Source: Microgenomates group bacterium GW2011_GWC1_46_15 (GTDB lineage: Bacteria > Patescibacteriota > Microgenomatia > UBA1400 > UBA12028). Taken from it: 64,000 nt of DNA. The notes below the pieces were generated by a model. It ran no database searches. It saw only the letters and a list, made by a program, of their open reading frames with translations, and was not told the origin of the DNA. Position 1 is the stretch's first letter. Every line of letters starts with the position of its first letter. Where the stretch lies: contig LCLX01000002.1 of assembly GCA_001002285.1 (NCBI GenBank), positions 131,827 through 195,826 on the forward strand, in the 5' to 3' direction. The position numbers and the translations under genes are program-made. Shown here piece by piece: positions 36,060 through 57,049 of this stretch.

Positions 36060-36266
36060 ATGTATAATTGGTCAGTACATACACCACGACTCAAAAAAAA
36101 TCCTCGAGCATACAACACATTCGTACTCGAACAACGTATTAATTTTGGTCTCAATGGAAAGAAACTTTCACGTAGTTTGCTCAAGAAGTACTGGAATGAG
36201 CTTGTGATTGATCCGCACAAACGAACATTCCTCGAGAAGATTATATGGACACAACCCTCACTCTAA
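36060..36266 (+). CDS. small ORF overlapping the toxin start; possible remnant or minimal cognate antitoxin (AbiEi position)
   Basis: 68-aa ORF whose stop overlaps the AbiEii ATG by 22 nt; no wHTH recognisable; surrounding 35.9-36.06 kb shows broken frames. Confidence 0.2.
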   Translation: MYNWSVHTPRLKKNPRAYNTFVLEQRINFGLNGKKLSRSLLKKYWNELVIDPHKRTFLEKIIWTQPSL

Positions 36267-36901
36267 GACAAAGAAAAGCGTTGAAATGCATCGCACGAAC
36301 AAATCTGGCAAAACAATTCTACTTTACCGGTGGAACGGCATTGGCGCATGTCTATCTTCACCATCGCAAATCTGAAGATTTAGACTTTTTTAACGAGCAA
36401 GAATTTGATCCTCAACAAGTGACGAGTACACTCAAAACATTTCAGCGCGCACTCGGATTTATTTCGTTTGATTACCAACAGAGTTTTAATCGCAACATCT
36501 ACATGCTTCGATTCGATCAAAGCAAATTCTTGAAACTAGAGTTTACGTTTTTTCCATTTCATCAGATAGAAAAACCATCAGAAAAAGAAGGTTTACTTGT
36601 TGATAGCATCCTTGACATTGCAACGAACAAACTCTTTACTATTGCCCAAAATCCTCGAGGAAGAGATTATTTTGATCTATATTGCATTGTACAAAAGTAT
36701 CACTATACCGTGGAAAGTTTGCGGATGTTTGCTAAACAAAAGTTTGACTGGCATGTTGATCCTCTTCAATTAGGATCGCGATTCCATGAAGTTGCGCAAC
36801 ATCTTGACGACCCGATTCTTGTAACATATGTTGAACATGCTTTGGTTGTGAAATTTTTTCAGGACGAAGCGATGAAGTTTACATCGCAAATTATCGGGTG
36901 A
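36245..36901 (+). CDS. AbiEii/AbiGii-family nucleotidyltransferase toxin (type IV TA / abortive infection)
   Basis: FTGGTALAHVYLHHRKSEDLDFF (motif I) and DSILDIATNKLFTIAQNPRGRDYFDLYCIV (RDxxDL motif) of DUF1814 nucleotidyltransferases. Confidence 0.75.
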   Translation: MDTTLTLRQRKALKCIARTNLAKQFYFTGGTALAHVYLHHRKSEDLDFFNEQEFDPQQVTSTLKTFQRALGFISFDYQQSFNRNIYMLRFDQSKFLKLEFTFFPFHQIEKPSEKEGLLVDSILDIATNKLFTIAQNPRGRDYFDLYCIVQKYHYTVESLRMFAKQKFDWHVDPLQLGSRFHEVAQHLDDPILVTYVEHALVVKFFQDEAMKFTSQIIG

Positions 36902-36986: not shown

Positions 36987-37127
36987 CTACCCTTTGAGTG
37001 CTTTGCGGAACTCACGGATTGCTTCGCCAATGCCGCGAACCAACTCGGGGATTTTCTTTCCGCCGAACAGGACCAACAGCACTACAGCGATGATAACAAT
37101 CTCGGTAGATCCAATGTTTTTAAACAT
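36987..37127 (-). CDS. tatA: twin-arginine translocase subunit TatA/E, copy 1 (46 aa; not in ORF track)
   Basis: MFKNIGSTEIVIIAVVLLVLFGGKKIPELVRGIGEAIREFRKALKG with AGGAG RBS; about 85% nt identical to copy at 54822. Confidence 0.7.
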   Translation of the reverse strand: MFKNIGSTEIVIIAVVLLVLFGGKKIPELVRGIGEAIREFRKALKG

Positions 37128-37138
37128 AGTGTCTCCTT

Positions 37139-37321
37139 TTATGCCTTTTTCTTTTCATCCTCGTCCAGAAGGGCTTCTTTCAAATCCTTACTGGCTTTTT
37201 TGAGCTCGCGGCCAGACTCTCCAAGGCCACGTGCAAAATCCGGCAACTTCTTCGCTCCAAACAGAAGCAAGAGGATGGCGGCAATAATAAGTATTTCGGG
37301 TGTCCCGATATTTTGAAACAT
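37139..37321 (-). CDS. tatA: twin-arginine translocase subunit TatA/E, copy 2
   Basis: MFQNIGTPEILIIAAILLLLFGAKKLPDFARGLGESGRELKKASKDLK...; AGGAG RBS. Confidence 0.8.
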   Translation of the reverse strand: MFQNIGTPEILIIAAILLLLFGAKKLPDFARGLGESGRELKKASKDLKEALLDEDEKKKA

Positions 37322-37516
37322 ACCACTCCTTTCTTTTCTTTATATGCGTACAGGCAGGGTCGTACTTCATTCATCCTACCCCACACCCTGATGAAAAAAC
37401 AAGGGGCAGGTCATTGTCCGCGCAAAAAAGAGCAAAATCTATACATATACATATTGACAAACTGCCCATATCTTTTTTACTGTAAGAAATACATACTATT
37501 GGATACCACCTCGTTT

Positions 37517-38587
37517 ATGATGAAAACCATTCTTTCTTTTTATAAAAATCTTCTCGTTATGCATGTTCTTATTTTGCTCATCGCTGTTGGCGCGACATTT
37601 GCGTCTTGGAAAATTGTTACTCTAACCATTCACGCGGAAAAACAACGTGTATTTAACCAGGAAAAAGATCAGGCGGCGCAGTGGCTTACGGAAAAGTTTT
37701 CATTATATTATTCTGTGTTAAGAAGTTTTCGGGCGTTTTGGTATAGCAATCCCCACGTTTCACAAAGTCAGTGGGAAAAATTTGTGAAAGATTCGGGAGT
37801 AATCAGTGAGTATCCTGGAATCTCATCGGTGTTTATGATCAAACGAGTACAACAGGAAGGCGCGCGCCCCTTAGAACAAGATATGCGGCGTATTTCCAAT
37901 CCTGCGTATAAAAAATACACTATCCATCCGGTAAAAAAGGATGCAGAGTACTATCTTGGATTCTATATTTATCCCACCGAAGGTCGGGAAACGGCGTTAG
38001 GCCTCGATCACCTCTCTATTCAAGACCGGCAAGAAAAACTTTTTCAGGCACGAGATACCGGAAATATTATGAACACGAGAGAAACACTGCTTTTGAATAC
38101 TGGACGACCAGGATTTTTTCTTGTCGCCCCACTGTACGACAATGCGGTACCACACGACACTGTTGACGGAAGAAGAAAAGCGTTCTGGGGATTTTCCGCC
38201 ATTTCTTTCCGGAGCAACGAGCTTTTTTCTTCTATTTATGGCAACGAAGACCCGTTCCCATTCCTCGACTTTGAGATATACGATGGAACACAAGTAACGC
38301 CGGAAAATTTACTCTATGACCATGACCGATCTCTCTCTGCTGTTACTCTTTCAAATGCATCCAAAATGACATATCAACAGGAACTCAAGCTTGACGACAA
38401 TCGTTGGACGATTGTTTTTGCAACGAAACCAAACTTTACGTTAGGCAAGTTTCAAGAAATTTTGCCGTGGATTGTGCTTGGGATTGGCGGAGTGTTTTCA
38501 GCATTTGTTATGTTTAATCTTATTCAATATGTTTTACAGATGAAAAAAATACGACAAACGAAAGAAAAAGAGGTTCTGAAAAATTAG
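37517..38587 (+). CDS. membrane protein with periplasmic CHASE-like sensor domain (TM-domain-TM, no output domain)
   Basis: N-terminal TM, about 290-aa extracytoplasmic region with ...ETALGLDHLSIQDRQEKLFQARDTGNIMNTRETLLLNTGRPGFFLVAPLY resembling the CHASE consensus, C-terminal TM; start at MMKTIL. Confidence 0.45.
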   Translation: MMKTILSFYKNLLVMHVLILLIAVGATFASWKIVTLTIHAEKQRVFNQEKDQAAQWLTEKFSLYYSVLRSFRAFWYSNPHVSQSQWEKFVKDSGVISEYPGISSVFMIKRVQQEGARPLEQDMRRISNPAYKKYTIHPVKKDAEYYLGFYIYPTEGRETALGLDHLSIQDRQEKLFQARDTGNIMNTRETLLLNTGRPGFFLVAPLYDNAVPHDTVDGRRKAFWGFSAISFRSNELFSSIYGNEDPFPFLDFEIYDGTQVTPENLLYDHDRSLSAVTLSNASKMTYQQELKLDDNRWTIVFATKPNFTLGKFQEILPWIVLGIGGVFSAFVMFNLIQYVLQMKKIRQTKEKEVLKN

Positions 38588-38691
38588 TATTGGTGAGTTC
38601 ATCGCAAATCACCAAACTTTTTTGACTCTTAATATATTCTACGTAGGTATGAGCAAATATGGCCGCCACCTTTCAATGGTAAGATTTTAAT

Positions 38692-40389
38692 ATGGCAGCT
38701 ATTGTTGTCCAACCTTTTGTCAGCAGATTTGAAACTCCCAGAGTGAAAATTAGTAATGAAGCTTTCGAAAATTCTGGCATTGAAATTTTTAGCTCCGAAC
38801 GGATACCTTTTTCGGACCGAACCGGGCCTAAAATTGCCCAAAACCTAACCAAAATGTTTGTCTCACGTGTACAAAACTTACAAAAAAGTAGTCATGACTT
38901 CCATATTTATGAGCTAGGAGCGGGTACTGGAATCTTGGCAAAAAGAATGCTTGATCTACTTAAAACCAACTATCCAAATATCTATTCCCAAACCAAGCTC
39001 CATCTTTCAGATATCTCCATGCCAGCGCTTACCCAGCTTAAAATGTTGAAAGATCTTAAGACACACAGCAGTCATATTTTATTTGAGGTTATAGACGCTC
39101 TAAATCCTAAATTCTCCCATAAACCGCTCCTAGTATATTTCACAAATCTCATTGACGCACTCCCCCACAACCGCCAAATTTTGGTCAAAAACGGTCAGAT
39201 TTTCGAATTTCAGGTTCAAACTACGCTTAAAAAGGATACCCAAATTGTTGACGCCACCTCTTATCCACCAAAAATTCTCGAAGGAAATAAAATCACCGAC
39301 CTTTTCTCTCCAAATAACATTAAAAGGAGAATAATTCTAGCACCTCAAATTCTTCAATCCTTGGAAGAAAAATCTCGATTCGTTCCTGTCGACGAAGTAT
39401 CAAATATGACTGAAAAAGAACGGGGAGATCTAAAAAACTTAGTAAAATCCAAGGACAACGGCGCTCCTTTTGTGTTTAATTATAACTATCCGGCCCGGCT
39501 GGCAATCATAAAAATGATTCGGGAATTGGAAAAGGGGGGGTTTATCTTTTTCTCGGACTTCGGCATTGCTGAAGGAACACTCGAAGAGGGTCTGCATCTG
39601 GAATGCGGTTTAACGATTTTTTTTACTGTAGACTTCCCTTCCTTTAAACAAATAGCACATACTGAGGGAGCATCTTGTTTTTTAACTTCCTATCTTCCGG
39701 GCTACCCGCAAGAAATGGTCATAGATACACTCCGTAATGATCTGACAATGGCAAATCTATTCCAAAAAGCTTCTATAGATTATCTTCAAGGCGAAGTAAG
39801 CGCTTTTTTGGAAAATGTTAAAACTGTTCTTTCCAATAGCCAAATGGCTAAAAATCAAAAATCAAAAAGGATTCACCATCTTTATAATTCTTTGTCTGTC
39901 GATGTAAGCCATAACTATCAACTGTTAAGTGATCTGCCTTATTTCTTCCTCCAGGCAGGTTTTTACAAAGATGCAGATTTTTATGCGGACATTCTCTATA
40001 ACCAGTATGGTCATTCTGTGGGAGTTTATTACGACATAATCAAAGGTAAGGTGCGGCAAGAAGAAGGCAATTTTAAAACCGCCGAGAAATTTTTTAAAGA
40101 GGCGGCCGAAAGCCACAAGGGATTTATAGCTTATGCGTATCTGGCCGAACTTTATTGGCAACATAAGCGCTACCCTGACTACGTTGAAGCTATTAAAAAG
40201 TATCTGAAATTCACCAGAAAAAGAGATCACCTAACAAGCCTGCTCTCAATCGCTTCAGCACAGGAGAAATATCTTGGTCCAGAAAAGGCCAAAAAAACTT
40301 TGGCGATTTTTATTAGTTTTGGGAAAAAATTAAAAAATCTTTCTTTATCAGAAAAAACATCTCTGGAACAAGCCCGCAGATTATTGTAA
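38692..40389 (+). CDS. class I SAM-dependent methyltransferase-like protein (MidA/DUF185-like) with helical C-terminal domain
   Basis: HIYELGAGTGILAKRMLDLL (motif I GxGxG), followed by DUF185-like architecture and a TPR-like C-terminus. Confidence 0.4.
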   Translation: MAAIVVQPFVSRFETPRVKISNEAFENSGIEIFSSERIPFSDRTGPKIAQNLTKMFVSRVQNLQKSSHDFHIYELGAGTGILAKRMLDLLKTNYPNIYSQTKLHLSDISMPALTQLKMLKDLKTHSSHILFEVIDALNPKFSHKPLLVYFTNLIDALPHNRQILVKNGQIFEFQVQTTLKKDTQIVDATSYPPKILEGNKITDLFSPNNIKRRIILAPQILQSLEEKSRFVPVDEVSNMTEKERGDLKNLVKSKDNGAPFVFNYNYPARLAIIKMIRELEKGGFIFFSDFGIAEGTLEEGLHLECGLTIFFTVDFPSFKQIAHTEGASCFLTSYLPGYPQEMVIDTLRNDLTMANLFQKASIDYLQGEVSAFLENVKTVLSNSQMAKNQKSKRIHHLYNSLSVDVSHNYQLLSDLPYFFLQAGFYKDADFYADILYNQYGHSVGVYYDIIKGKVRQEEGNFKTAEKFFKEAAESHKGFIAYAYLAELYWQHKRYPDYVEAIKKYLKFTRKRDHLTSLLSIASAQEKYLGPEKAKKTLAIFISFGKKLKNLSLSEKTSLEQARRLL

Positions 40390-40398
40390 GCTAAAAAT

Positions 40399-43065
40399 AT
40401 GGCGGGTACATTTTCTACCGATCTGACACCTATCAAAGCAGCGGAAGCGACCGCCGATTATTCTTTAGTCGGCACTTTAAAAAGCGCCATGGCGCTTAAT
40501 GACGACTATAAACTTGAAAGTACCAACTGCATCACTTGCGGTGTCAGCAGCGCCACTGGTACTGGTACCGCTAGCATACTGGCCTTGACTCCTTCTGCAA
40601 ATCTAAATCTAACTGGTGCAGGATACCATTTTTTTATGTGGATCAAAGGTATCGCTTGGCCGTCAATGGCCATAAGAGCGTCTGGAGGACTTGGTATGTC
40701 CATATCTTCAGATGCCCCACCAACGGCAGTTATTTCTGTTTTGTCAGCGGTTGTTGTCAATGGTGGAACTTCGGGGACATATGCAGTCAGTGACGTCTTA
40801 ACCGTTGTCGGAGGAACTGGTACCGCCGCAACACTTACGGTTACAGGAGTTAGCGCAGGCAAAGTGACGACCGTAATTCCTACTGCCTCCACCCGGGGAG
40901 CATATACAACCTTTCCCACAAACCCTGTTTCTGTTACAGGGGGTGGTGGTACAGGAGCCACTTTTACCCTCACTTCCATTAACACCACCACCAACACTAA
41001 ACAATGGTTTGTCGGAGGTAGTAATACAGATTCCGTCGTGGGCTGGACAAACTATGTGGTTGATATAGACGGTACACCGGATATTTCCATAGGTACTCCC
41101 GCTATGAACTCGGTTGACAGAATGGGTTTTCGTATGACAGCTACCGCAGTTGTGAAAGTAGCTAACTTCATTTTTGACGTTAGCCGGTATGGGAAAGGAA
41201 GTACTATAAATGACGGGACTGGTAGTGTTCCTGTCACCCTGGCCGATTACCAAGTATATGACAATGCCAATGCCCGCTCCTGGGGCGTTGTTACTACCCA
41301 AAATGGTATTTATTTTATCTGCGGAAAACTTAATATCGGAACGGTTGCCCAAAGCGCAGAGACGGTATTTAAGGAGCAAGCTAACGTCATCGTCTACCAG
41401 GATTTTCCCGTTGCATCAACTTTTTATGAAATTCTAGTTGTGGGAGCGAGCGCCCAAAAAACTACTTTTCAGCTAGGAAGTTATGACCCCGCTTCGGGAT
41501 TAACTTCAGGCGGGTGTACTATCAAAGGTTCTGGTAATGTCAACAGCTCGTCTCGAACTGATGGCACGGTAGGAATCGCCCACTCCGTTTGGACTCTTAC
41601 GGCCAGCGACGCCAACCAGGTAACCAAACTATACGCTTCAACCTTTTCCGAAATGCTTAGCGCGGCCTTAGCATACAACGCAGTTTCTATTGAACTGACC
41701 ACTAACTGCACCACCAATGGAACCGTCACGCTTGTGACATCCGACAGTTATGATACGTCCGGAATTGTGATCGGAATGAAAGTAACCGGCACAAATATCG
41801 ATGCCAATACTTACGTTTCGTCCATTGAAAGCGCTACTTCTTTAACTATGGATAAAGCCGCCACAGGTTCAGGGTCTTCACTCACCATGACCTTTACCCA
41901 CAACAACGAAATAAGGGGTTGTACTTTCTCAAATTTCGGCACCATCACAACCAACGGGTGTGTTATAGATAGTTGCACATTTCAAGACGTCAAAACCGGA
42001 GCGCCAATCAGTGCTACTTATGCGTTGATTGTGAACTCCACTACAGAAATGGGCAGGATCACTAACTCCAAATTTATTAACTGCAACCGCGCAATCAAAA
42101 TTACTACTGCGGGTGATTATACTTTTACCGGCAACACCTTCTCTGGAAACACGTACGATATCGAAAACTCGGCCGCCGGTGCCAATGTCACCGATATCTA
42201 TTCAGAAAGCAATTCCGATGGCACCATTGCACTCAACGACTCTACAATCGGAGTTTCTCAGTCGTTTACTGGCGATGGAAATAAATTGGCCAACGCTGTT
42301 TTCTACTTAAGCAAAACGAATGCTCCATCTGGGAATGCTGTCGCGAAAGTGTATGCGCATTCTGGTACTTTTGCTTCTAGTTCGCTTCCCACTGGAACTG
42401 CTTTGGCTACAAGTCGAAATGTTGACGTTACCGCTCTCACTGGTTCGCTTGCTCTCACTACTTTTTATTTTGGCGATCAGGGTCAAAACATTACCCTTAC
42501 AAACGGCACAAAATATGTTGTTACCATTGAATATAGTAGTGGAACTTCAAGCAATACTGTTAACGTTGGCCGTGATGCGAGTAGTGCTACAGCAGCCGGT
42601 AGCTGCGCAACCTTGGTCGGCACAACTTGGACTTCAACCGCAACTACTACCGACGCCTGCTTTTACGTACGTACTGGTGGCGTTGTTACAATCACTCTCG
42701 CTAGCGGATCAAATCCCTCCGCAAATAAGGTTTTGAACAGTAACGCTATTCCGGGCGCTATTACAATAAATACAGGTGTAAATATAACGGTCCATGTGCA
42801 AGATTCAAGTCAAGTCAATATAACAGGAGCCGGGGTTCAAATATTTCAGACTTCAACTCCAACGAATATTATCGCGAACACAACAACAGATGGCTCTGGT
42901 AACATCGTTGGAAGTACTACACTCTCCGTAGGGACAGGTCTTACTATTAGAGTCCGCAAATCTTCTAGTGGCACTCGATATGTCCCCGCAGAAACCACAA
43001 CCACCGTTCCTTCTGTAGACTCCACCATCACGGTTGTTCTTACTGTAGACACGATTGCCGCGTAG
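40399..43065 (+). CDS. giant Thr/Ser/Gly/Asn-rich protein with right-handed beta-helix repeats (tail-fibre/adhesin-like), no signal peptide
   Basis: 888 aa, no hydrophobic N-terminus; runs of GTGTA/TTTNT and pectate-lyase-like repeats ...NSTTEMGRITNSKFINCNRAIKITTAGDYTFTGNTFSGNTYDIENSAAG... Confidence 0.6.
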   Translation: MAGTFSTDLTPIKAAEATADYSLVGTLKSAMALNDDYKLESTNCITCGVSSATGTGTASILALTPSANLNLTGAGYHFFMWIKGIAWPSMAIRASGGLGMSISSDAPPTAVISVLSAVVVNGGTSGTYAVSDVLTVVGGTGTAATLTVTGVSAGKVTTVIPTASTRGAYTTFPTNPVSVTGGGGTGATFTLTSINTTTNTKQWFVGGSNTDSVVGWTNYVVDIDGTPDISIGTPAMNSVDRMGFRMTATAVVKVANFIFDVSRYGKGSTINDGTGSVPVTLADYQVYDNANARSWGVVTTQNGIYFICGKLNIGTVAQSAETVFKEQANVIVYQDFPVASTFYEILVVGASAQKTTFQLGSYDPASGLTSGGCTIKGSGNVNSSSRTDGTVGIAHSVWTLTASDANQVTKLYASTFSEMLSAALAYNAVSIELTTNCTTNGTVTLVTSDSYDTSGIVIGMKVTGTNIDANTYVSSIESATSLTMDKAATGSGSSLTMTFTHNNEIRGCTFSNFGTITTNGCVIDSCTFQDVKTGAPISATYALIVNSTTEMGRITNSKFINCNRAIKITTAGDYTFTGNTFSGNTYDIENSAAGANVTDIYSESNSDGTIALNDSTIGVSQSFTGDGNKLANAVFYLSKTNAPSGNAVAKVYAHSGTFASSSLPTGTALATSRNVDVTALTGSLALTTFYFGDQGQNITLTNGTKYVVTIEYSSGTSSNTVNVGRDASSATAAGSCATLVGTTWTSTATTTDACFYVRTGGVVTITLASGSNPSANKVLNSNAIPGAITINTGVNITVHVQDSSQVNITGAGVQIFQTSTPTNIIANTTTDGSGNIVGSTTLSVGTGLTIRVRKSSSGTRYVPAETTTTVPSVDSTITVVLTVDTIAA

Positions 43066-43107
43066 AAATGTGATGATATCGTTTTATAATCCTGCTATAC
43101 TCGCACT

Positions 43108-43620
43108 ATGCAAATCGTTGATATTAACGGAACAGAACGCACATGTTTAAAGGCGTTCCCTGACCCCGCATACCCTGGATATATGCGCGTTGAGTTCAGA
43201 ACTCACCATGAATGGTTCACGCTCAAAGAGTTTCTTTTTTTTAACCCCACGCTGAAAAACTTAATGGCTGGTGCTCCCAATCTTCCTGCCGATGATCTTG
43301 GAGTCGTTACATCATCCGGAAAAAACTTTATCAGAGATGCAAAGAAAAACTGGAAAGAAAACAGTTATATTGATTTCACGATTTGGATCTCGCGGGGGCT
43401 TGGTGAGGGACAAACACGAAGGGTGATGAGGAATACACGAAACACGGTCTATACCAATACACCTTGGAATACCAAACCAAATAAAACTTCTCAGTATTTA
43501 ATTTCACATGATATTCACGATGTGAAAGCGTTTGGAAATGTTCTTCCACAAATTGAACAGGCCGAATACGAAAGACGCGCTAAAGAAATGGATAAAAAGA
43601 AAGCACCACAAAAAAATTAA
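43108..43620 (+). CDS. hypothetical protein
   Basis: 170-aa ORF with Lys-rich C-terminus; no motif. Confidence 0.4.
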   Translation: MQIVDINGTERTCLKAFPDPAYPGYMRVEFRTHHEWFTLKEFLFFNPTLKNLMAGAPNLPADDLGVVTSSGKNFIRDAKKNWKENSYIDFTIWISRGLGEGQTRRVMRNTRNTVYTNTPWNTKPNKTSQYLISHDIHDVKAFGNVLPQIEQAEYERRAKEMDKKKAPQKN

Positions 43621-43631
43621 AAATATATACT

Positions 43632-44105
43632 ATGAAACTCGCAAAAGAATATCAGTTCCTCGTTATTATCAGCCTCTTTATTTTTGCGTACGTGCTCGAA
43701 GCGCTCGTGAATCCTCTGCAAATCAATCTTATTACTCCATACAGCTACCTTAACCCACAAATTCTTGCGAAGTACCCGTTTACAACCGCAATTATTGCGA
43801 TTAAAAGTATCGCGATCTTTTGGACCCCACTATTTCTTTTTTCTTTTATCCAGAAAGCATACGCCGCAAAGGGAAGCATTTTCCTTGTATTAGCCGGACT
43901 TCTCCAGTTATACTCACTCCAAGAAATCGCAACCGGTGCCCAAATTGTGCCACTGGAGTGGTCACTCGCGCTTTCTGTTGCGGGAATACTCCTTCTTATC
44001 CCAACCAGTCTTTTTTTCCTTCAGCATAGTTTTCATACAATGCGTGCGAAAATCCACTCGCCTACTCCTCCACCCATTGCTTCTCCACAAAAATCCACTC
44101 CTTGA
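43632..44105 (+). CDS. hypothetical membrane protein (about 4 TM)
   Basis: 157 aa, hydrophobic helices, Pro-rich C-terminus. Confidence 0.4.
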   Translation: MKLAKEYQFLVIISLFIFAYVLEALVNPLQINLITPYSYLNPQILAKYPFTTAIIAIKSIAIFWTPLFLFSFIQKAYAAKGSIFLVLAGLLQLYSLQEIATGAQIVPLEWSLALSVAGILLLIPTSLFFLQHSFHTMRAKIHSPTPPPIASPQKSTP

Positions 44106-44136
44106 CGCTGACCCTTCCTCTTACTACTATTGATGT

Positions 44137-44499
44137 ATGCACAAGCAATTTTTCGTGCTGGCTGACTACAGAGAAAAAAGCATACATTGGAAAGCGGGAA
44201 ATATTGTACTCGTGGATCCTGATATTGCAGTTCCATTTATTGGAACGATTCTTACCCCACTGTACTCTGCCATCAAAGCAGGTCTGTATCCACCGGCTCC
44301 GCAAGAGCCGCTTGCCATAAAAATGATGAAAAAGATGAAAGAAAATGTGAAAGAAATTGTTGGTATGCCGCCAGAATCATCAAAAAATCCTCCGCCCTCC
44401 TCACTTGGCTCAATCCTTGCGAAGAAAAAGTTTTTACAAAACGATATCCGAGCAAAAATTCAGGCAAAGAAAGCTGAACGCGCGCAAGGAAAGAGTTAG
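44137..44499 (+). CDS. hypothetical protein
   Basis: 120-aa ORF; Lys-rich C-terminus. Confidence 0.35.
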   Translation: MHKQFFVLADYREKSIHWKAGNIVLVDPDIAVPFIGTILTPLYSAIKAGLYPPAPQEPLAIKMMKKMKENVKEIVGMPPESSKNPPPSSLGSILAKKKFLQNDIRAKIQAKKAERAQGKS

Positions 44500-44573
44500 C
44501 TCTTGTAACTTTGTAGTGTATACATAATACTAAAACTTGATTATTGTGGAAGTAATGGCATAAAGAAACATAT

Positions 44574-47222
44574 ATGGCAATAGCAAATGATTGGCGCATA
44601 GACTATACAAATAAACTCATTGTTCATGCAACGAGTGAGCTTGCGTACCAAACGCAAACCGTAAATTATACTGTTGGTGATCTTATTACCCAAGCAGTTT
44701 CTGGAGCAACAGCGGTTATCGTTGCTGATGTTGATGGTGGTGCTACGGGAACACTCCATATCGCGTACGTTACCGGAACGTTTAACAACACCAATACGAT
44801 TACGGATCAGCATACTGGTTCCGCTGCGCCGAACATCCCAACTGGGCTTGTTACAAAAACCGCAACATATACGACCCGCGCACTGTACTCATACATTCAA
44901 GACACGTTTGACGAGCTTGTTCAGCTTGACGATACCGTTCCAATGTCCGCCCAGACGCCTACTGAGTTTACACTTATTAACGGGTGGTTTATTGACGATA
45001 ACTCGGTCAAGTTCCTATACGGCGGAGCACTTCAAACATCTGGCTATGATGCTGTAATCCAGATGATAGCTTTTGGCGGAACATATACCCCGGCAATTAA
45101 TTCTGATATCGGAAAGATGGTGAACGACGATACTGTTGATAGCGGTAATCTCCTCCATTTCAACAATACAACGAAAAAATGGTGGGTTCGTTGGGGAACC
45201 CAAATCGCTTCCGGTTCAGCTATGACACTAGATGGTTCGGGTACTGGTGCCGGAACAACAAATGTTAACGGAGACATTACTGGTGAAGATTTGTACGCGA
45301 ACGTCTATACCTTGGGAAGCATCGCAACAAATCCAAATCCGCAAACATATATTTTCCAGAACTCCGCCTCCATTACACCGTGGTGGGGTCGTGGAGACGT
45401 AAACGCTGCTATTGACGTCCTCATTAAGGTAAAAGAACTTGGAAGCGAAATTGATGGTGCAAATATTACCGTGTATGTCCGCCATTACGGCGACTTATAC
45501 GACCACTTTGCCATTGATCTTACAAACGGAGGACGCAACGCCGTTCCTCTCTCCTCTGCTACAGACTTGAACAATAATACACTGGGTGAAGCGTATCTTT
45601 TATACGATGGTCAAGGAGCAACAAACTTTACGGCAGGTCTCATCCTCACCAATGCCGGTGGCACCGCAACCGCTGAGATCATCGCTGATACAGATAACGG
45701 TGCGAATGGATATTTAACCTTAGGGAATGTCAAAGGTACTTTTGCAGATGGTGAAATTATTACCGATACTTCCACAGGATCGGCAACAGTCAATGGAAGT
45801 GTTGGCGACACTGTTCTCAACTTTGATACCGAAACCGCGGCATTTGTCGCACTTGATCAAATCGTTACAGGCGGCACTTCTCTTGCACAACGACAACTCA
45901 AAGGTATTCAGGATGATGCGGGAGCAACCGGAAGGCTTGTCTTAAAGGTGAGCGACACCGCCGATGCTGATCACTTTAAAACATTCTCTGACAATGAAAT
46001 TATTACTGGGGCAACAAATGGAAGCGCTTCTGCTAATGGTGCTTCTACTACAGCCGCCGCAGGGTTTGCAAATATCAAAACTTGGTTTGTAAACGTCGAG
46101 GTAGACTTTGCAAGCAAAACGGGATCGGTACCGGCGGGAAGTACGGTGACCGGAGCAACCTCTGGAGCGATAGGAGTGTTTTTAGGGGAAAAAGACGCAA
46201 ACACACTCACCATTGGGAACTGGAACGGAATAAATTTTACTGCAAGTGAACAACTTCGAGTAGATGTGTCAAACTACTACGCGCTTCATGCAACACTCAA
46301 TCAAACATCCGCTTTTACAATGAACAAGGCGTTCACCCAAGGAACAAATAATCCGTACTCTATTATTGTGGACTGTGCAAACCGCTCACTCTCTCAAGTT
46401 TACGAATGGCTTAAGTACATTACACGCGATGGTGCCAACTCAAGCCAAGTTTATCGCCAAATTATGTACCCCGTTATCTCTTCAACCGTTGTCCAACAAG
46501 ATGGCGAAGAATACATCGCAGCCCGCGTTCTCCCTGATACTGCGTTCACACCAGTCAAAGCTTCCCCATTTGGGACCTTTGCTGGAGGTAAACTCTTCGG
46601 TGCCCAAGGTGTTTGGGTGCAAAACATGGTAAGCACCGATGTTCAATCATTCCAGCTTATTGACAGTAACGGAGCTACCCGTACTCCGCCGAACTTCCAA
46701 TCGCTTACCGTCACCGGTGTCATTTCTGGAGATAAGGTTGCAGTATTCCGCACCACAGGAGGTACAACAATTAATAAAGCCGTATTTACACTTGCCGCAG
46801 GAAACAATGCTGGGAATAGCACGATCGTTGTAAATGAAGCAATCCCAACCGATACTCCTTCTCCGACCGGTGTTATTCGGTTAGTTGATACGTCAGACAC
46901 GAGTATTAATCGTGAAACAAAGTACACGTATACGAGTTGGGATGGCGGCACAAAAACATTCTCTGGCGTATCTCCCGTCCTAGATAGAAATTACACATTA
47001 ACGGATGACACAGCCTACGTTCCATACATTGATACCACAGCATCTGGCACGAGCGTTACCGTTTCGGTTATTTACCCAAGTGCTGACCGCACGGTGCTCG
47101 CCCGTGTCCGCCGGTATAACGGTGTAGGTGACTCTATTCTTCCTTTCGAAACAACCGGAACATACAGCTCTACCGGGTACTCTACTGCTGCTATCCGTAC
47201 ATCCGACTCCATCGTTCTATAG
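44574..47222 (+). CDS. giant Thr/Gly/Asn-rich protein with four internal about 65-aa repeats (tail-fibre/adhesin-like), no signal peptide
   Basis: 882 aa; repeats of form G(A/T)TSGATxxV...D..A.GTL.L..V.GTF..(N/G)E.IT (e.g. VSGATAVIVADVDGGATGTLHIAYVTGTF; GGTATAEIIADTDNGANGYLTLGNVKGTF; GATNGSASANGAS; VTGATSGAIGVFLG). Confidence 0.6.
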   Translation: MAIANDWRIDYTNKLIVHATSELAYQTQTVNYTVGDLITQAVSGATAVIVADVDGGATGTLHIAYVTGTFNNTNTITDQHTGSAAPNIPTGLVTKTATYTTRALYSYIQDTFDELVQLDDTVPMSAQTPTEFTLINGWFIDDNSVKFLYGGALQTSGYDAVIQMIAFGGTYTPAINSDIGKMVNDDTVDSGNLLHFNNTTKKWWVRWGTQIASGSAMTLDGSGTGAGTTNVNGDITGEDLYANVYTLGSIATNPNPQTYIFQNSASITPWWGRGDVNAAIDVLIKVKELGSEIDGANITVYVRHYGDLYDHFAIDLTNGGRNAVPLSSATDLNNNTLGEAYLLYDGQGATNFTAGLILTNAGGTATAEIIADTDNGANGYLTLGNVKGTFADGEIITDTSTGSATVNGSVGDTVLNFDTETAAFVALDQIVTGGTSLAQRQLKGIQDDAGATGRLVLKVSDTADADHFKTFSDNEIITGATNGSASANGASTTAAAGFANIKTWFVNVEVDFASKTGSVPAGSTVTGATSGAIGVFLGEKDANTLTIGNWNGINFTASEQLRVDVSNYYALHATLNQTSAFTMNKAFTQGTNNPYSIIVDCANRSLSQVYEWLKYITRDGANSSQVYRQIMYPVISSTVVQQDGEEYIAARVLPDTAFTPVKASPFGTFAGGKLFGAQGVWVQNMVSTDVQSFQLIDSNGATRTPPNFQSLTVTGVISGDKVAVFRTTGGTTINKAVFTLAAGNNAGNSTIVVNEAIPTDTPSPTGVIRLVDTSDTSINRETKYTYTSWDGGTKTFSGVSPVLDRNYTLTDDTAYVPYIDTTASGTSVTVSVIYPSADRTVLARVRRYNGVGDSILPFETTGTYSSTGYSTAAIRTSDSIVL

Positions 47223-47243
47223 TTCTCTTGCTATAATGTCCCC

Positions 47244-47771
47244 ATGGCATACGTTTTCAACTTTTACACACAGATTATTGACATAACAAATCCGCAGACA
47301 ACCGTGGTGATTCAAGACTTGATTAACGAGATCCGCACCCAGGAATCTTCGGCTACCGGTATGGCATATCCAAAAATCGCCGATGCAGGAGGAAAGGATA
47401 ATCTTGGAGGCGGAGTGAGTACAGGCATAACCATCACACTCTACCCAGACTGGCAGCTCCGTTTTTGGGCAGGAAGCTACATTGCCGATATCACCGGCGG
47501 CAACCTTGTGGGAGGTTTGGGTGGCAATCCATTTGCATATGTTGCGGGCGTACAAATCAAAGTTATTCAGTCTGCCGCTTCAACTATTGTTACCAGTGGC
47601 GGTTCTGCACTCACAACAGCAGAACACGATAAACTCATGTCCGGTCTCGATGCCACCATTCCCCCAGCCGTGTGGGAAGAGCTTCTTGCAAGCCACCAGA
47701 CGGCGGGAACAATGGGCAAAGCGCTCAAAGATATCAAAACAAAAGCAACGCTTGGCGCGATTAGTAAATAG
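47244..47771 (+). CDS. Gly-rich hypothetical protein (tail-fibre-like small partner)
   Basis: 175 aa, NLGGGVSTGITITLY...GGNLVGGLGGNPFAYVAGV; no signal peptide. Confidence 0.5.
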   Translation: MAYVFNFYTQIIDITNPQTTVVIQDLINEIRTQESSATGMAYPKIADAGGKDNLGGGVSTGITITLYPDWQLRFWAGSYIADITGGNLVGGLGGNPFAYVAGVQIKVIQSAASTIVTSGGSALTTAEHDKLMSGLDATIPPAVWEELLASHQTAGTMGKALKDIKTKATLGAISK

Positions 47772-47863
47772 TATAATTTTTTCTTCAAGACGTCTCTTGT
47801 TTTTCTCCTCTAATCTGCTTATGATGAATATCAGATTGTTGTATAGGAAAAAAGGAGGAAGAT

Positions 47864-48034
47864 ATGTTCCAAAATATCGGCACAACGGAAGTTGCCATTG
47901 TCGCGGTGCTTCTTTTGCTCTTGTTCGGAGGAAAAAAACTTCCAGAGCTTGGCAAAGGATTGGGTGAGGCAGCGCGTGAAATCCGCAAAGCGTTTACCGA
48001 GGACGATGCGTCTGAGAAGAAAAAGAAGTCATAA
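47864..48034 (+). CDS. tatA: twin-arginine translocase subunit TatA/E, copy 3 (56 aa; not in ORF track)
   Basis: MFQNIGTTEVAIVAVLLLLLFGGKKLPELGKGLGEAAREIRKAF...; AAGGAGG RBS. Confidence 0.8.
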   Translation: MFQNIGTTEVAIVAVLLLLLFGGKKLPELGKGLGEAAREIRKAFTEDDASEKKKKS

Positions 48035-48048
48035 AGAAAGGACTCGAT

Positions 48049-48189
48049 ATGTTTGCAAATATTGGCTTGAGAGAAATTCTCGTTTTGGTGTTGATCGCCG
48101 TGCTCCTGTTCAAAGGAGGAGAGTTGCTCCCAAGACTCATTCGCGGACTGGGTGATGCGGTACGCGAGTTCCGTAAATCATCCCGGTAA
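48049..48189 (+). CDS. tatA: twin-arginine translocase subunit TatA/E-like, copy 4 (46 aa, divergent)
   Basis: MFANIGLREILVLVLIAVLLFKGGELLPRLIRGLGDAVREFRKSSR. Confidence 0.65.
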   Translation: MFANIGLREILVLVLIAVLLFKGGELLPRLIRGLGDAVREFRKSSR

Positions 48190-48233
48190 CAATATAAAGG
48201 GGACGCGACCCATAGGGGATGTAACTTACCCGC

Positions 48234-50873
48234 ATGCAACATACTGCCGTAGCTATTAGGCGTTGGGTGATTGCTTTCGTTTGCAGTGTTTTGTTGTTCT
48301 CTCTTCTCTTTTTCTCCTCATCTCCAGTTCGCGCTATTAGTGCGGAGTATCAACAATGCCCCGTCAATACCAGTTGTACCGTTGGCGAGTTCTTATATGC
48401 CGATGACTACTCGCCCATTGCCGGTGCCACATGCACATACACCGCGCGCAAACCCGATGGAACGTTGTTTTTAAACGCCGTTGCCATGTCCGAAAGTTCG
48501 GATGGATGGTACGCATATAGCGTGAACGCCACAGGCGCGGTTTCTGGTCTCTACCGCGGAACCATCTGTTGTACTCCACCCGCCGACGCCCAAGTGTGTT
48601 TGGAAAAAAGTTTTGTTGTTGGCCCAGCGGACATGACCGCTACGGATGTCGCAAACGCGGTGTGGGATGCAACGCGCAGTTCACATACGACAACCGGTAG
48701 TTTTGGTGAAAATCTCCAGAACGCTACATCAATTACCGCCGCCGATGTTTGGAATTACTCGAGTAGAACGCTTTCTGGATTTGGCACACTGGCGAGCGAT
48801 GTGTGGGCAAACTCCACCCGCACGCTTTCTGGATTTGGTGATTTGGTATCGAGTATAACATCAAGCATTTGGGGAAATTCTTCAAGAACACTCACCAGCG
48901 GAACACTGAGCAATAGCGAATCGCTCGTAACTTCCTCGAGCACCACACAAAACATTACCGTTACCTACAACACCATTTCGCAACAACTCACCGAAACGCG
49001 GAGTTTGCTTGAGCGAGTCATTAATCAGCCCACTATTCAGTCATTTATTGATGATAAACCAACCGAAAGTCTTGAGTCTAAACTGCAAAAAACCGAGTCT
49101 ATGCTCCTTCAGGTGCAAGAACAGTCTACGCGAGCAATGAACACTATTGACCTCCTTGGTTTAACATGGTCAAGCGTCCAGCCAGATCAACTCACCCAAA
49201 AACTGTCCGATACTACAAAACTTTTAGGAACAAATCCTGATGATCCACACCCAGAAACGATGCTTGACAATGCACACATCCTCGCGTCACTCTGGAATAG
49301 CCTTGTCTTATCAAGCCTTTCGGATCAAACACAAGCAGCGCTGGTTTCTGCAAAGTCTGCGGAACAACAAGCGAAAAGCTCCGGAAAATCGTCTGCTACG
49401 CGCCAATCCCTTCAGGAAACATCAAAATTCCTCACTACGTTGACGCAACTCCTCGGTACCCCCGAAGATGCGTATACAAAACCAACTGCGTTTGGGTATC
49501 TTCATGATCTTCAACGAAAAGCACAGGCGTTACACGAGCAGGAACAGTCCGCACAAAACCTTCTTTCGGACTGGAAATCTATTGACACAAAAAACAGAAG
49601 CCAGTTGCTTGCCACACTATCCAAAGAAGTGTTTGCGATTAATGCCATTCCGCAAGGAATAGTGCTAACAACTCCCGCAAAGGTAGCACATAGTCCAGAA
49701 ATCAGCCAAAAGAACCAGGCGCTCGGCCTACAAGCGCTCATTTCCGCAAACAAACAGCTTCTCGCGCAAAATGCCAACGATCCGCTTAACTCGTACTGGC
49801 TTGAAGAAGGAAGTGTTATTTTCCGTTTCCTCCTCACCAATCCATCTTCAACCATTCGGCAAGATGTTCCCGTGAAATACTATCTCCCTCCAGAAGTGAT
49901 GAAGGAACACATTCTTACTATTGATACAGGGTTGACTATTGAGTATGACGCGGAAAAAAATACGTATTTTGCTTCTGGAACGTACTCCCTTGCCTCCCAG
50001 GAAACAAAAACAATCTCCATAGAAGTTGAGGATATCTGGGTTATTCAGGATTCGGATCTTCAAGCCATCAAAAAACAGGCCGAGGACCTGCTCAAACCAC
50101 TCCAAAAGACTTCGTACTATGCGCAAGGGGCTCTTTTGAAGTCCGATATTGATGTGGCAGTAGATAAAATCTCCGCAAATCAAAGCAAAGACCGCACACC
50201 AGACGCCCGTATCCGCGCATATCGGGAAAATGAAATCGAGCTGGTTGGTATTAAACAAAACATGAGCGCGCTTAAAAACATTGTTGCATCCGCAAGTTCA
50301 ACGGGCTCCATTTTTGGATTTGTGGGGAGTGTACAGGTTGTTGCTGTATGGGGCATTATCATCGTTCTCCTGGCGGGACTCACATATCTTGCGCTGTACA
50401 TGAAAGCTCTCCGGACAAAAATTGATATGCCAGAAAACTTAGAAAGTGCTTTACAGGGTGCCAATATTCCAACAAAAAGATACTATGAAAAACCCATTCC
50501 TGGCTGGAAGAAGGGCGTGTTTGTTCTTTTGTTTTTCCTTCTTACAGGAACAATTACTTCGGCTGTTTCTTCAGCATTCCTTGTGCAGTCAGACCAACAG
50601 AGTACAAAACAAATCGCTAGCACGACACGGGAAGAAAAACTGACGGTGCTTGGTGCGACAACAAAGGTACAACGTGCTACGTTACAAGGAAAAGTTCAAC
50701 CCGTTCCTATCTATACTTCTCCATCCTCCGAAAGCGAGATGTTGCATAGAATACCGGAAGATATTATCGTACAGATCAAAGGAAAGAAGTTTAATTGGAT
50801 ACAAATTCAATACACTTGGGGCGCGGGTGTATACATTGGCTGGGTACAAGATAACACGTTGAAAAAAGAGTAA
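48234..50873 (+). CDS. large secreted/membrane-anchored protein with RR-containing signal peptide, WxNxSxRTLSGFG repeats, coiled coils, 2 TM and C-terminal SH3b domain
   Basis: MQHTAVAIRRWVIAFVCSVLLFSLLFFSSSPVRA|ISAE signal; three about 19-aa repeats (VWNYSSRTLSGFG / VWANSTRTLSGFG / IWGNSSRTLTSG); TM helices near aa 690-760; C-terminal KFNWIQIQYTWGAGVYIGWVQ (SH3b-like). Confidence 0.6.
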   Translation: MQHTAVAIRRWVIAFVCSVLLFSLLFFSSSPVRAISAEYQQCPVNTSCTVGEFLYADDYSPIAGATCTYTARKPDGTLFLNAVAMSESSDGWYAYSVNATGAVSGLYRGTICCTPPADAQVCLEKSFVVGPADMTATDVANAVWDATRSSHTTTGSFGENLQNATSITAADVWNYSSRTLSGFGTLASDVWANSTRTLSGFGDLVSSITSSIWGNSSRTLTSGTLSNSESLVTSSSTTQNITVTYNTISQQLTETRSLLERVINQPTIQSFIDDKPTESLESKLQKTESMLLQVQEQSTRAMNTIDLLGLTWSSVQPDQLTQKLSDTTKLLGTNPDDPHPETMLDNAHILASLWNSLVLSSLSDQTQAALVSAKSAEQQAKSSGKSSATRQSLQETSKFLTTLTQLLGTPEDAYTKPTAFGYLHDLQRKAQALHEQEQSAQNLLSDWKSIDTKNRSQLLATLSKEVFAINAIPQGIVLTTPAKVAHSPEISQKNQALGLQALISANKQLLAQNANDPLNSYWLEEGSVIFRFLLTNPSSTIRQDVPVKYYLPPEVMKEHILTIDTGLTIEYDAEKNTYFASGTYSLASQETKTISIEVEDIWVIQDSDLQAIKKQAEDLLKPLQKTSYYAQGALLKSDIDVAVDKISANQSKDRTPDARIRAYRENEIELVGIKQNMSALKNIVASASSTGSIFGFVGSVQVVAVWGIIIVLLAGLTYLALYMKALRTKIDMPENLESALQGANIPTKRYYEKPIPGWKKGVFVLLFFLLTGTITSAVSSAFLVQSDQQSTKQIASTTREEKLTVLGATTKVQRATLQGKVQPVPIYTSPSSESEMLHRIPEDIIVQIKGKKFNWIQIQYTWGAGVYIGWVQDNTLKKE

Positions 50874-50881
50874 GAAGGCGA

Positions 50882-51316
50882 CTACTGCCAAACTCCCTGC
50901 CCTGCAACAACATTAAACAAGAAATGTATAAGCATTGCTCCTACTAGTCCCACAAACACCCACTTTCCTTTATTTGCGATACCAAGCCCCACCGCACCCA
51001 TTGTTACCGCGTGCATGGGTACTGTAAGGAATAGCCTGAAGAGGAGGGGCTCAAGCGATCCAAATTGAATGGCGCTCGGTAAAAAAAGCAGACTCTCAGA
51101 TAGGCCAAAAACTGCTCCAAAAAGGAGGGGGCGGTATGCCTTTCCCTCTGTATTTGTCCATCCAATTACCCGTAGCATGCCATACTTTGCAAACTCTTCA
51201 ACAAACCAAGGAACTGGAATGATGAACTCAAAAGGTACTGCAAATACAGGCAACATGACGGCAAACAGCGTTTGGGAGATAACTTGAGGAATGTTTGGTG
51301 TACGCCGGGCTGGCAT
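50882..51316 (-). CDS. CPBP-family intramembrane glutamic endopeptidase (CAAX protease/Abi-like)
   Basis: VEEFAKYGMLR (EExxxR), FGAVFGLSESLLF, MLIHFLFNVVAG (HxxxN) motifs; start at MPARR (the longer ORF may add 40 aa). Confidence 0.55.
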   Translation of the reverse strand: MPARRTPNIPQVISQTLFAVMLPVFAVPFEFIIPVPWFVEEFAKYGMLRVIGWTNTEGKAYRPLLFGAVFGLSESLLFLPSAIQFGSLEPLLFRLFLTVPMHAVTMGAVGLGIANKGKWVFVGLVGAMLIHFLFNVVAGQGVWQ

Positions 51317-51547
51317 ATATACAGTATACCCAATAACACAACTCTTTTCCTTTACACTCAACTCGTGCAAATATGCTCTCCGCAACTCTTTGGTTTTCTT
51401 TCGTCTATTTTTAACCTGAGTATGTATTGTGCTCAATTTTGGCCTCTTTTTGGTGATTTTTACTACCTTGCCGCGTGAAAACTTATACTCTTTGGTGTTC
51501 TCTCTTTAAACGAGATATCATACATATAAAACCCGTAGAAACTGTTT

Positions 51548-51728
51548 TTACAACTCTTTGCAACTTCTTACAATGCCCGGCCTTCTCCCCAAATCGCGGA
51601 AAATTTTTGCGTTTGATATATTTTTCCTTTTTTCCACACAACCGCCTATTTCCAGAGAAATATGTATTGACAACGGTTGTTTTTTTAGAGTAGTCTGAAG
51701 TTGTACAAAGTTGTAAGAATTTGTAAAG
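51548..51728 (+). promoter_or_regulatory. two sets of triple direct repeats at 10-bp phasing upstream of the HTH gene (putative operator/promoter)
   Basis: TTACAAC-tct-TTGCAAC-ttc-TTACAAT (51548-51575) and TTGTACAAAG-TTGTAAGAAT-TTGTAAAG (51701-51728), with TTGACA at about 51668 between them. Confidence 0.35.
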
Positions 51729-51736
51729 CATCAGAT

Positions 51737-52285
51737 ATGAATGAAATGTATACCGTCAAACAAGTTGCCGACATTCTTGGATTTTCCACGAACACAGTCT
51801 ACAAATATCTCAATGCTGGGATCATTCATACTTCACGCCCAGGACAGATGAAAAGTCGGTTTCGCATTTCAAAAAAGGCTTTGGAAGACTACCTTGGTGT
51901 TCCAATAGATGAATATAAGAGTGAAAAGCACGCGCGCGTTGAGCCTCTTTTTTCACAAGAGCACAGTTCTTCACAATCTCCGATAGAAACAGTGATCGTT
52001 GATGCAAACGCCCAAAAAATGGGCATTCCTGAGCCTCCTCTCGAGGTAAAGTCTGCTCATGAAGCTGGTACAGAAGACCATGAGGAGCACAATATTGCCC
52101 CATCTTTTGCTCTACGCACCACACGCGCTCTTCTTTTTATTACTTTAATTGGCGTCACATTAAACCTCGCTTTTTTTAGCCTTCCACATCCCATTACGCT
52201 TTTGTCGCAACTCCTGATTCTTTTTGTATTCTTGCTCTTGGCATACCAATATGGCGGAATGCACAAGAAAAAGGCAGTGGTATGA
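51737..52285 (+). CDS. membrane-anchored helix-turn-helix (excisionase/MerR-like HTH_17) DNA-binding protein
   Basis: MNEMYTVKQVADILGFSTNTVYKYLNAGII HTH; C-terminal TM helix LLFITLIGVTLNLAFF...; ATG preferred over the upstream TTG. Confidence 0.5.
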   Translation: MNEMYTVKQVADILGFSTNTVYKYLNAGIIHTSRPGQMKSRFRISKKALEDYLGVPIDEYKSEKHARVEPLFSQEHSSSQSPIETVIVDANAQKMGIPEPPLEVKSAHEAGTEDHEEHNIAPSFALRTTRALLFITLIGVTLNLAFFSLPHPITLLSQLLILFVFLLLAYQYGGMHKKKAVV

Positions 52286-54058: not shown

Positions 54059-54073
54059 TGTTTGAAGGAATAT

Positions 54074-54805: not shown

Positions 54806-54821
54806 TAAAGAAAGGAGCGAC

Positions 54822-56886: not shown

Positions 56887-56917
56887 TAAACGTCGTTATT
56901 TGTATAGTATGCGTTTG

Positions 56918-56991: not shown

Positions 56992-57049
56992 AAGACATCT
57001 AGTATTCTATCGTGTTTTTCTTCAAAATCCAATCTGCTACACTACACGC

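Follow-up and report, generated by a model that had tools for sequence, protein, structure and literature searches.

A stretch of 64,000 nucleotides from Microgenomates group bacterium GW2011_GWC1_46_15 (contig LCLX01000002.1, positions 131,827 to 195,826 of the forward strand; hereafter the window) carries three genes, here called p1, p2 and p3, which are homologous to a contiguous p1-p2-p3 gene set of many uncultivated tailed phages, and which in relatives belonging to the Candidate Phyla Radiation (CPR) recur beside genes of the twin-arginine translocation (Tat) system. The explanation that we prefer, and hold to be moderately probable, is that a phage spike module has been domesticated, with p2 and p3 kept beside the Tat genes and displayed as a fibre or spike on the cell envelope. 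Their conservation beside Tat in related CPR bacteria, with no head genes around them, suggests that the cell now uses p2 and p3 itself. The three open reading frames (ORFs) lie exactly where the initial annotation had placed them, all on the + strand: p1, a tailspike-like protein of 888 aa, at 40399–43065; p2, 882 aa long and the conserved centrepiece of the module, at 44574–47222; and p3, 175 aa, with the conserved N-terminal domain of a spike and a C-terminal motif, at 47244–47771. Together they occupy 5,844 nt, or 9.1% of the window, which agrees with the share of about 9% estimated at first.

The connection with phages emerges from a scan of IMG/VR, by pattern and by tblastn, that recovered at least 99 viral contigs with relatives of p2; the counts given below were made on the 80 that were fetched. 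In these loci a p1-like gene stands just upstream of p2 in 38 of 80 and a p3-like gene just downstream in 62 of 80, always on one strand, and a distance of a few kb separates the trio from the genes for the portal and the major head protein. Recurrent neighbours are an HK97-type major head protein (phrog_2522 at 1e-77; PF25209), portal, large terminase, head maturation protease, and head-morphogenesis proteins, and a typical order is a portal-sized gene, a scaffold-sized gene, the major head gene, two genes of ~220 aa, p1-like, p2-like, a small gene, and p3-like. Since no tape-measure, tube or sheath genes were seen among the annotated neighbours in the viral loci, the modules look like those of short-tailed (podovirus-like) phages. 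The reading that the initial annotation had drawn from the composition and N-termini of the proteins, namely phage tail fibres or tailspikes or else non-classically exported adhesins, is supported by the company and the retained order of their viral relatives, and it is also backed by the beta-helix model of p1 and by the tailspike architecture of long p3 homologs.

Genes of the window other than the trio, including the g157 gene described below, are absent from the 80 viral loci, and tat genes occur in none of them. When the genes flanking the phage trio were compared by remote homology with the neighbours of the window trio, nothing was found for g157, g120, g144, g227b, g137, or the HTH and SH3 proteins; the sole match joins the N-terminal ~60 residues of g170 to the ~75-aa protein of viral cluster c6, which is encoded beside the phage trio (hhalign 96.9%, E=1.5e-10), so that at least four genes of the cluster have phage counterparts. 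The closest viral relatives of the window copies, loci L060–L074, are probably phages of related hosts. Besides these, some contigs from metagenome-assembled genomes (MAGs) labelled Archaeoglobales, Woesearchaeota, Desulfarculales, Nitrososphaerota, and Planctomycetes (L015, L045, L050, L052, L014, and L055) carry p1-p2(-p3) without tat. One of them, L015, and IMG/VR locus L070 are a single contig of 24,094 bp, and L050 forms a tight group with viral L089; matches to viral capsid clusters were obtained for L014 and L015, and L045 encodes an M15 endolysin. All of these are probably phage contigs whose host labels are unreliable.

The p2 protein consists of a core, approximately residues 96–335 and 580–882, into which a variable number of beta repeat domains of ~70 aa are inserted. 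A homolog search returned more than 593 sequences, the alignment of p2 has 55 invariant columns, and a profile search of 1.84 billion cluster representatives gave 2,511 relatives at E<=1e-3, of which 547 reach E<=1e-30; giants of 2,000–4,263 aa are among the relatives. The AlphaFold2 model of p2 is confident (pLDDT 88.6, pTM 0.79); its global alignments to the PDB by Foldseek are meaningless, with TM values of 0.1 or less, and no structural or sequence relative of the core was detected among solved tail proteins. The four repeats reported in the initial annotation are real, with bounds at residues 20–88 (R1; 44631–44837, + strand, strands 21–78 in the model), 338–410, 411–492, and 500–575 (R2 to R4, in tandem; residues 338–575, 45585–46298, + strand), and alignment z-scores against shuffled sequences of 13.2 for R1/R2, 7.1 for R2/R3, 4.3 for R1/R3, and 4.2 for R1/R4. 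They do not form one even array: ~250 residues of conserved core stand between R1 and R2–R4, and the resemblance of R4 to the other units is only weak. R2 shares 49% identity with a unit of the “neck protein” of Rhizobium phage RHph_I3_18, the rest of which is unmatched, and for this reason the repeat is regarded as a mobile decoration domain and not as the signature of the family. This one repeat unit was all that matched among the deposited phages of INPHARED, where the p2 core, p1, and p3 found no match. Giant proteins of 2,800–4,263 aa (L004 1295–9736; P0290, P0365, P0370) either hold the position of p1 upstream of p2, in Shapirobacteria, or contain the full p2 core.

The third protein, p3, has an N-terminal domain (approximately residues 1–118) followed by a C-terminal “VWEE..H..G.MG” motif, and 104 homologs were collected. 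In the long ones, of ~400–520 aa, the N-domain leads into a beta-helix of ~250 aa and then into a “VWDE..H..G(S/T)xG” motif, which is a tailspike architecture, and L004 (431 aa), L141 (443 aa), and P0018 carry PF13229 or PF05048. Alignment with the viral and CPR long forms indicates that the window p3 is without the beta-helix and has retained the N-domain and the terminal motif; p3 carries the conserved N-terminal domain of the second spike of the module. Its gene directly follows p2 in 40 of the 56 genome loci of our survey, which were found via two peptide patterns, as well as in the 62 viral loci mentioned above. Moreover, natural fusions of ~1,396 aa (P0018–P0023) unite p2, the p3 N-domain, the beta-helix, and the motif in one chain, from which we infer that p2 and p3 act together as one assembly.

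Regarding p1, its AlphaFold model (pLDDT 77.4, with lower confidence in the C-terminal beta domains) shows runs of 3–5-residue strands that build a right-handed parallel beta-helix at approximately residues 298–590 (41290–42168, + strand), and 200–260 residues of it align structurally with beta-helix enzymes and tailspikes. The predicted fold is thus a beta-helix of the tailspike type, and the beta-helix claimed in the initial annotation, which had quoted a motif corresponding to residues 549–584 (nt 42043–42150), is borne out by a model that matches tailspikes and depolymerases. Within the family of p1 the N-terminal region is conserved, and it is followed at residues 119–193 (40753–40977, + strand) by a Gly/Thr-rich module of ~75 aa, 'GGT..VLTVVGGTGTAATLTV..PTNPVSVTGGGGTGATFTL', which is common to PF11134 phage proteins: the pattern 'VLTVVGGTGTAATLTV...PVSVTGGTGTGATFTL' occurs as a single copy in p1 and as two copies in the PF11134-bearing phage proteins P0156 and P0157. 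Membership of p1 in PF11134 was considered and rejected, as there is no PF11134 hit and only this module is shared with the distant hits P0156/P0157; neither it nor the p2 repeat has a Pfam model. Homologs of p1 sit near head genes in the 38 viral loci that contain them, and no virion genes surround the copy in the window. The gene is accessory in cellular genomes, being present in 14 of the 56 loci and missing from the closest relatives.

None of the three proteins has a Pfam, PHROGs, NCBIfam, or PADLOC match above threshold, and this includes PF13229 (Beta_helix) and PF05048 (NosD) in Pfam; searches against PDB sequences with single sequences and with family profiles gave no match either. 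Their N-termini (MAGTF, MAIAN, and MAYVF for p1, p2, and p3) all begin with MA, are not hydrophobic, as had been noted from the start, and are kept in homologs. For each ORF the start used is the earliest that follows an in-frame stop, and, with no upstream start available and conserved N-termini, a signal peptide hidden by a misplaced start, which the initial annotation had left as a possibility, is excluded. The Pfam scan also found no SLH or other anchor domain and no S74 peptidase domain in the trio, and no Sec signal peptide was found. As for composition, the richness in Thr, Ser, Gly, and Asn was confirmed (44.7% in p1, 38.0% in p2, and 32.6% in p3, compared to 23.4% in neighbouring proteins), as was the Gly content of p3 (12%, compared to 5.6%). 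The label “low-complexity” did not hold up, because just 0–4% of 25-residue windows have low entropy and the local sequence entropy is almost normal; together with the confidently folded models of p1 and p2, this makes “compositionally biased” the accurate term.

The setting of the window genes is chromosomal. A prophage at this place was sought and rejected, in that a tblastn comparison of the window with the 1,414 ORFs of the viral loci matches only p1, p2, p3, and a short p3-like motif in the neighbouring g879. Adjoining the trio, no genes for a capsid, portal, terminase, or integrase were found by this search over the window or by Pfam in the flanking 20 kb, a PHROGs scan of the neighbours of the trio gave no match, and no tube, sheath, tape-measure, or baseplate genes, as would mark a tailocin or an extracellular contractile injection system (eCIS), are present among the called genes and Pfam hits of the window and of loci L004 and L141. 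The Pfam lists for the flanking genes contain housekeeping and envelope functions. The sequence of p2 has 100% identity to a hypothetical protein from a MAG of a “Candidatus Pacebacteria bacterium”. Three assemblies share the same 22-kb stretch, on contigs of 193, 49, and 33 kb, where it is flanked by the genes for ribosomal protein L28, an M50 peptidase, tatC, and RibD_C, and in two CPR genomes of ~0.8–0.95 Mb the cluster is bordered by genes for acetyl-CoA synthetase, thioredoxin, and a tRNA synthetase.

Of all the features of the trio, its linkage to the Tat system is the most conserved and the one that was least to be expected. The initial annotation gave the tatA pairs merely as a position, and correctly so, with one pair at 36987–37321 on the − strand, upstream of the cluster (46 and 60 aa; PF02416), and the other at 47864–48189 on the + strand (56 and 46 aa; PF02416), starting 92 nt past the stop codon of p3 and in the same direction. 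A tatC of 243 aa and a fifth tatA of 48 aa follow at 54074–54968, + strand (PF00902 and PF02416), and tatC is found in 32 of the 56 loci. Of the 28 chromosomal-type loci with at least 6 kb of downstream sequence, 25 have tatC at 0.8–7.8 kb downstream of p2 (median ~2 kb), compared to none of the 6 binned-phage loci and none of the 80 viral loci. Five tatA paralogs of 46–60 aa and one tatC thus lie within an 18-kb part of the window (36987–54968) in a small genome, and relatives have two to five tatA in the same cluster.

In its recurrent form the CPR cluster consists of HTH_17, SH3, g227b, g157, g170, (g120), (p1 or a giant), p2, p3, two to five tatA, tatC, g144, and g879; it is co-directional, p3 is often of the long beta-helix form, and no head or packaging genes are nearby. 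The lineages represented are Pace-, Roizman-, Shapiro-, Davies-, Collier-, and Amesbacteria, together with some contigs titled Saccharibacteria. Contigs titled “uncultured Pseudomonadales” or “Gammaproteobacteria” (MAGs deposited as TPA; L006, L007, L010–L013, L022, L025, L026, and others) contain the full CPR-type cluster with the same g170/g157/tat arrangement, and these titles are probably not the true taxonomy.

A further feature of the module is its slow change. Compared with the nearest relative, L035, identity is 70% for p2 and 68% for p3, then 59% for g170, 51% for TatC, 45% for g120, 30% for HTH_17, and 28% for CHASE, and the DNA of the whole cluster is 100% identical across the three assemblies with intact ORFs, save for a structural variant in L003, which affects tatA_c/tatA_d and g879 at its 5' end. 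The hypervariability between strains that the initial annotation had raised is contradicted by these figures: p2 and p3 evolve more slowly than TatC and behave as constrained structural parts. The L003 variant (~13300–13600, against 47864–48420 of the window) is a difference of ~211 nt that merges or deletes tatA_c/tatA_d and leaves g879 with 846 aa and not 879; it could be due to recombination between tatA paralogs or to an assembly artefact. A neighbour-joining (NJ) tree of the p2 core, rough, without support values, midpoint-rooted, and used as a hint only, places most Tat-linked copies, including that of the window, in one large clade, and a second Tat-linked group (L012, L013, L028, and L033) beside viral sequences, with the Saccharibacteria-titled copies distant from these. 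This topology suggests that exchange between phages and CPR chromosomes has taken place more than once.

The remaining genes of the cluster can be described briefly. Between p1 and p2 lie g170, a conserved cluster partner of 170 aa (43108–43620, +; 18 of 56 loci), g157, a hydrophobic protein of 157 aa that by eye is probably a membrane protein and is restricted to the CPR cluster (43632–44105, +; 20 of 56 loci), and g120 of 120 aa, found directly upstream of p2 in the closest relatives (44137–44499, +; seven loci). The closest relatives have the order CHASE-g170-g157-g120-p2, into which p1 and a methyltransferase are inserted in the window. The latter, a 565-aa protein with Methyltransf_28 (PF02636, 1.3e-17) and TPR domains, is encoded at 38692–40389 (+) and ends 9 nt before the start of p1; the same pairing with a p1 homolog, preceded by glycosyltransferases, recurs in a Roizmanbacteria genome (L141 8273–9976), and the enzyme might modify the Thr/Ser-rich spike proteins. 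Downstream of the second tatA pair, g879 is an SH3 envelope protein of 879 aa (48234–50873, +; 18 of 56 loci) with a signal peptide, a weak C-terminal SH3 match, and, by eye, an N-domain rich in Cys as well as a hydrophobic stretch close to the C-terminus. At approximately residues 125–220 (48600–48900) it contains the repeats 'VWDATRSSHTTTGSFG', 'DVWNYSSRTLSGFG', and 'DVWANSTRTLSGFG', of the form “VW..(H/R)T..G”, which resemble the C-terminal motif of p3 and the repeats of long p3-family phage fibres (P0263, P0269), and a viral ORF matches this stretch (hit at 48639–48791, E=2e-7). It is followed by g144, a PrsW-like membrane protein next to tatC/tatA (50882–51316, −; 16 of 56 loci), in which the motifs “VEEFAKYG” (EExxK) and “HFLFN” (HxxxN) were recognized by eye and whose homolog in the Roizmanbacteria locus L141 gives a weak PF13367 hit; EExxK and HxxxN are typical of intramembrane proteases of the PrsW/CPBP type. 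Finally, an HTH_17 protein, an SH3-domain protein of 227 aa, g137, and g227b (51746–54058, +) are cluster members that in relatives usually stand upstream of g170/g157.

Farther out, an AbiEii-type nucleotidyltransferase toxin gene lies at 36245–36901 (PF08843, 5e-21) and is not conserved in related loci; a 68-aa ORF precedes it and overlaps its start (small ORFs at 36060–36266), and the two possibly constitute a toxin-antitoxin pair. Downstream of the cluster, at 56917–62242, four tRNA genes (Trp, Thr-TGT, Tyr, and Thr-GGT) make an ordinary chromosomal context. A scan for promoters and terminators gave counts at chance level and was uninformative.

If the module has indeed been domesticated, p2 oligomers with p3 docked onto them, and with p1 where it is present, would form a fibre or spike at the cell envelope, and this spike would bind a polysaccharide on a partner cell or on the own envelope and, in the lineages with beta-helices, possibly cut it. 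The neighbouring envelope and Tat genes would support its placement, and the envelope setting, namely the Sec-signal SH3 protein g879, the PrsW-like g144, and the glycosyltransferases and methyltransferase beside the p1 homolog, was counted in favour of this explanation. The linkage with Tat is real, and Tat-dependent export of the trio is put forward as a hypothesis: as Tat moves folded proteins, it could export a signal-less trio encoded beside it. A precedent is Tat hitchhiking, in which HybC of E. coli hydrogenase-2 is exported with its twin-arginine partner HybO. The trio would likewise be folded and oligomeric, and it is signal-less and encoded beside tat genes; it differs from HybC/HybO in that the CPR cluster is without a conserved twin-arginine partner. 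A bolder version holds that in Microgenomates CPR a podophage spike (p2 and p3, with p1 or giants in some) has become a surface organelle for attachment or glycan cutting, and that the multiplied TatA/TatC serve as a dedicated exporter of the pre-folded oligomer without a twin-arginine signal; we regard this version as unlikely.

Several points weigh against domestication. The surface location, oligomeric state, and enzymatic activity of the trio are predicted features. None of the three proteins has a signal peptide, nor could any gain one from an upstream start, and none has a twin-arginine motif or a hydrophobic N-terminus. As a possible Tat substrate or carrier g879 was examined and rejected, since the window copy opens with “AIRRWVIAF...” but its homologs are of the Sec type, with the twin arginine in 1 of 18, and no conserved twin-arginine family that might act as a hitchhiking carrier was found in the CPR clusters. 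Furthermore, the window p3 has no beta-helix and the closest relatives have no p1, so that the functional tip varies between lineages, the survey of the cluster across CPR drew on two peptide patterns, and the Tat-linked copies do not form one clade in the NJ tree, by which repeated exchange with phages, and not one ancient domestication, is possible.

Four other explanations were weighed, and all are weaker than domestication of a phage module. The direction of transfer could be the reverse, with p2 and p3 (and p1) being native surface proteins of the CPR Tat cluster, akin to adhesins or S-layer proteins, that phages captured as receptor-binding appendages; this is improbable, given that the viral copies are more diverse, with contigs among them that were binned as archaea, Planctomycetes, Desulfarculales, and Bacteroidales, and are found within structural modules for head and tail, that a beta-helix spike with a docking N-domain is a typical phage design, that the trio has no signal peptides, and that the structural hits to S-layer proteins have TM-scores of 0.1 or less. 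Alternatively, the genes could be inert leftovers of a decayed prophage that had integrated near tat by chance and have no present function, an idea to which the loss of all head and packaging genes, the patchy occurrence of p1 among relatives, the nearby AbiEii toxin gene, and the non-monophyly of the Tat-linked copies would lend themselves. Yet p2 and p3 are intact and conserved beyond TatC over deep CPR divergences, the same gene order recurs in the 25 of 28 loci of many lineages, and dead DNA amounting to 5.8 kb seldom survives in small, reduced genomes, all of which leaves this idea little room.

Chromosomal tail proteins could also serve as an anti-phage device that poisons the tail assembly of incoming phages or blocks their receptor (superinfection exclusion), and it speaks for such a device that the closest viral relatives are those probable phages of related hosts and that a toxin of the AbiE family is encoded nearby. 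However, no cluster protein has a credible PADLOC hit, a rate of change slower than that of TatC is the opposite of the divergence expected from an arms race, and the linkage with Tat and envelope genes would be left unexplained; we consider a defensive role very doubtful. Least probable of all, to the point of being hardly credible, is that an active prophage or a phage genome was mis-assembled into the MAG. All three genes do have phage homologs, and some MAG loci are truly phage contigs, as in the case of L015, but separate assemblies show the same arrangement, flanked by the genes for L28, the M50 peptidase, tatC, and RibD_C and with tRNAs encoded farther on in the window, the CPR genomes of 0.8–0.95 Mb show the cluster beside tRNA synthetase and acetyl-CoA synthetase genes, and the window has no relatives of head or terminase genes.

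Domestication of a spike module has parallels among known systems. The model of p1 shares the right-handed parallel beta-helix with podovirus tailspikes and depolymerases (of the P22 gp9 type; Pam1 7eea, CBA120 TSP2 6w4q, and Klebsiella phage depolymerases), whereas the trio has no sequence-level match in Pfam, PHROG, NCBIfam, or PDB, and the window copies are chromosomal, slow-evolving, without virion genes around them, and with the beta-helix of p3 lost. In the branched tailspike systems of phages G7C and CBA120, one tail protein offers docking sites for other spikes; the combination of a conserved p2 with a p3 N-domain that is always adjacent or fused resembles the pattern expected of such an adaptor with its docked spike, but no relative of the p2 core, by structure or by sequence, was detected among solved tail proteins. 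Tailocins (R- and F-type), eCIS/PVC, type VI secretion systems, and gene transfer agents are likewise phage structural genes kept for the use of the cell, but they keep a tube, sheath, tape measure, or whole head, while here the spike or fibre module stands alone. The nearest functional precedent that we found is that of the MAT fibres of Bdellovibrio, phage-tail-fibre-like adhesins displayed by a predatory bacterium (PMC10769870). They too are chromosome-encoded phage-fibre-like proteins in a cell that depends on other cells, and their beta-helical parts resemble the P22 tailspike (PMC10769870). As described there, MAT proteins have a signal peptide and then a ~130-aa beta-rich domain that is conserved, and many end in an S74 chaperone-protease, features that, in a comparison with the published description, set them apart from the trio, which has neither signal peptide nor S74; no Tat linkage came up for MAT in the parts consulted (PMC10769870). 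A limited literature search brought up no account of a phage-spike cluster linked to Tat in CPR; a paper on a Roizmanbacteria phage (PMC6509639) served as background only.

Little is known of how CPR bacteria, or Patescibacteria, recognize and hold their hosts, and the majority of their large surface proteins lack annotation. The findings described here give a first handle on a large family, that of p2, which comprises 2,511 cluster representatives, is without a model in Pfam, PHROG, or NCBIfam and without a solved structure, and belongs to a tail-appendage module of phages. This conserved tail module, p1-p2-p3 (+c6), could also be used to flag structural regions in uncultivated phages, including likely phages of CPR bacteria. 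CPR chromosomes hold this module under strong constraint and in a fixed place beside the Tat translocase and envelope genes. Should it be displayed on the cell, a cell would here have kept the spike part alone of a phage, and the module would be a candidate device for host attachment and a possible reason for CPR bacteria to retain and multiply Tat components.

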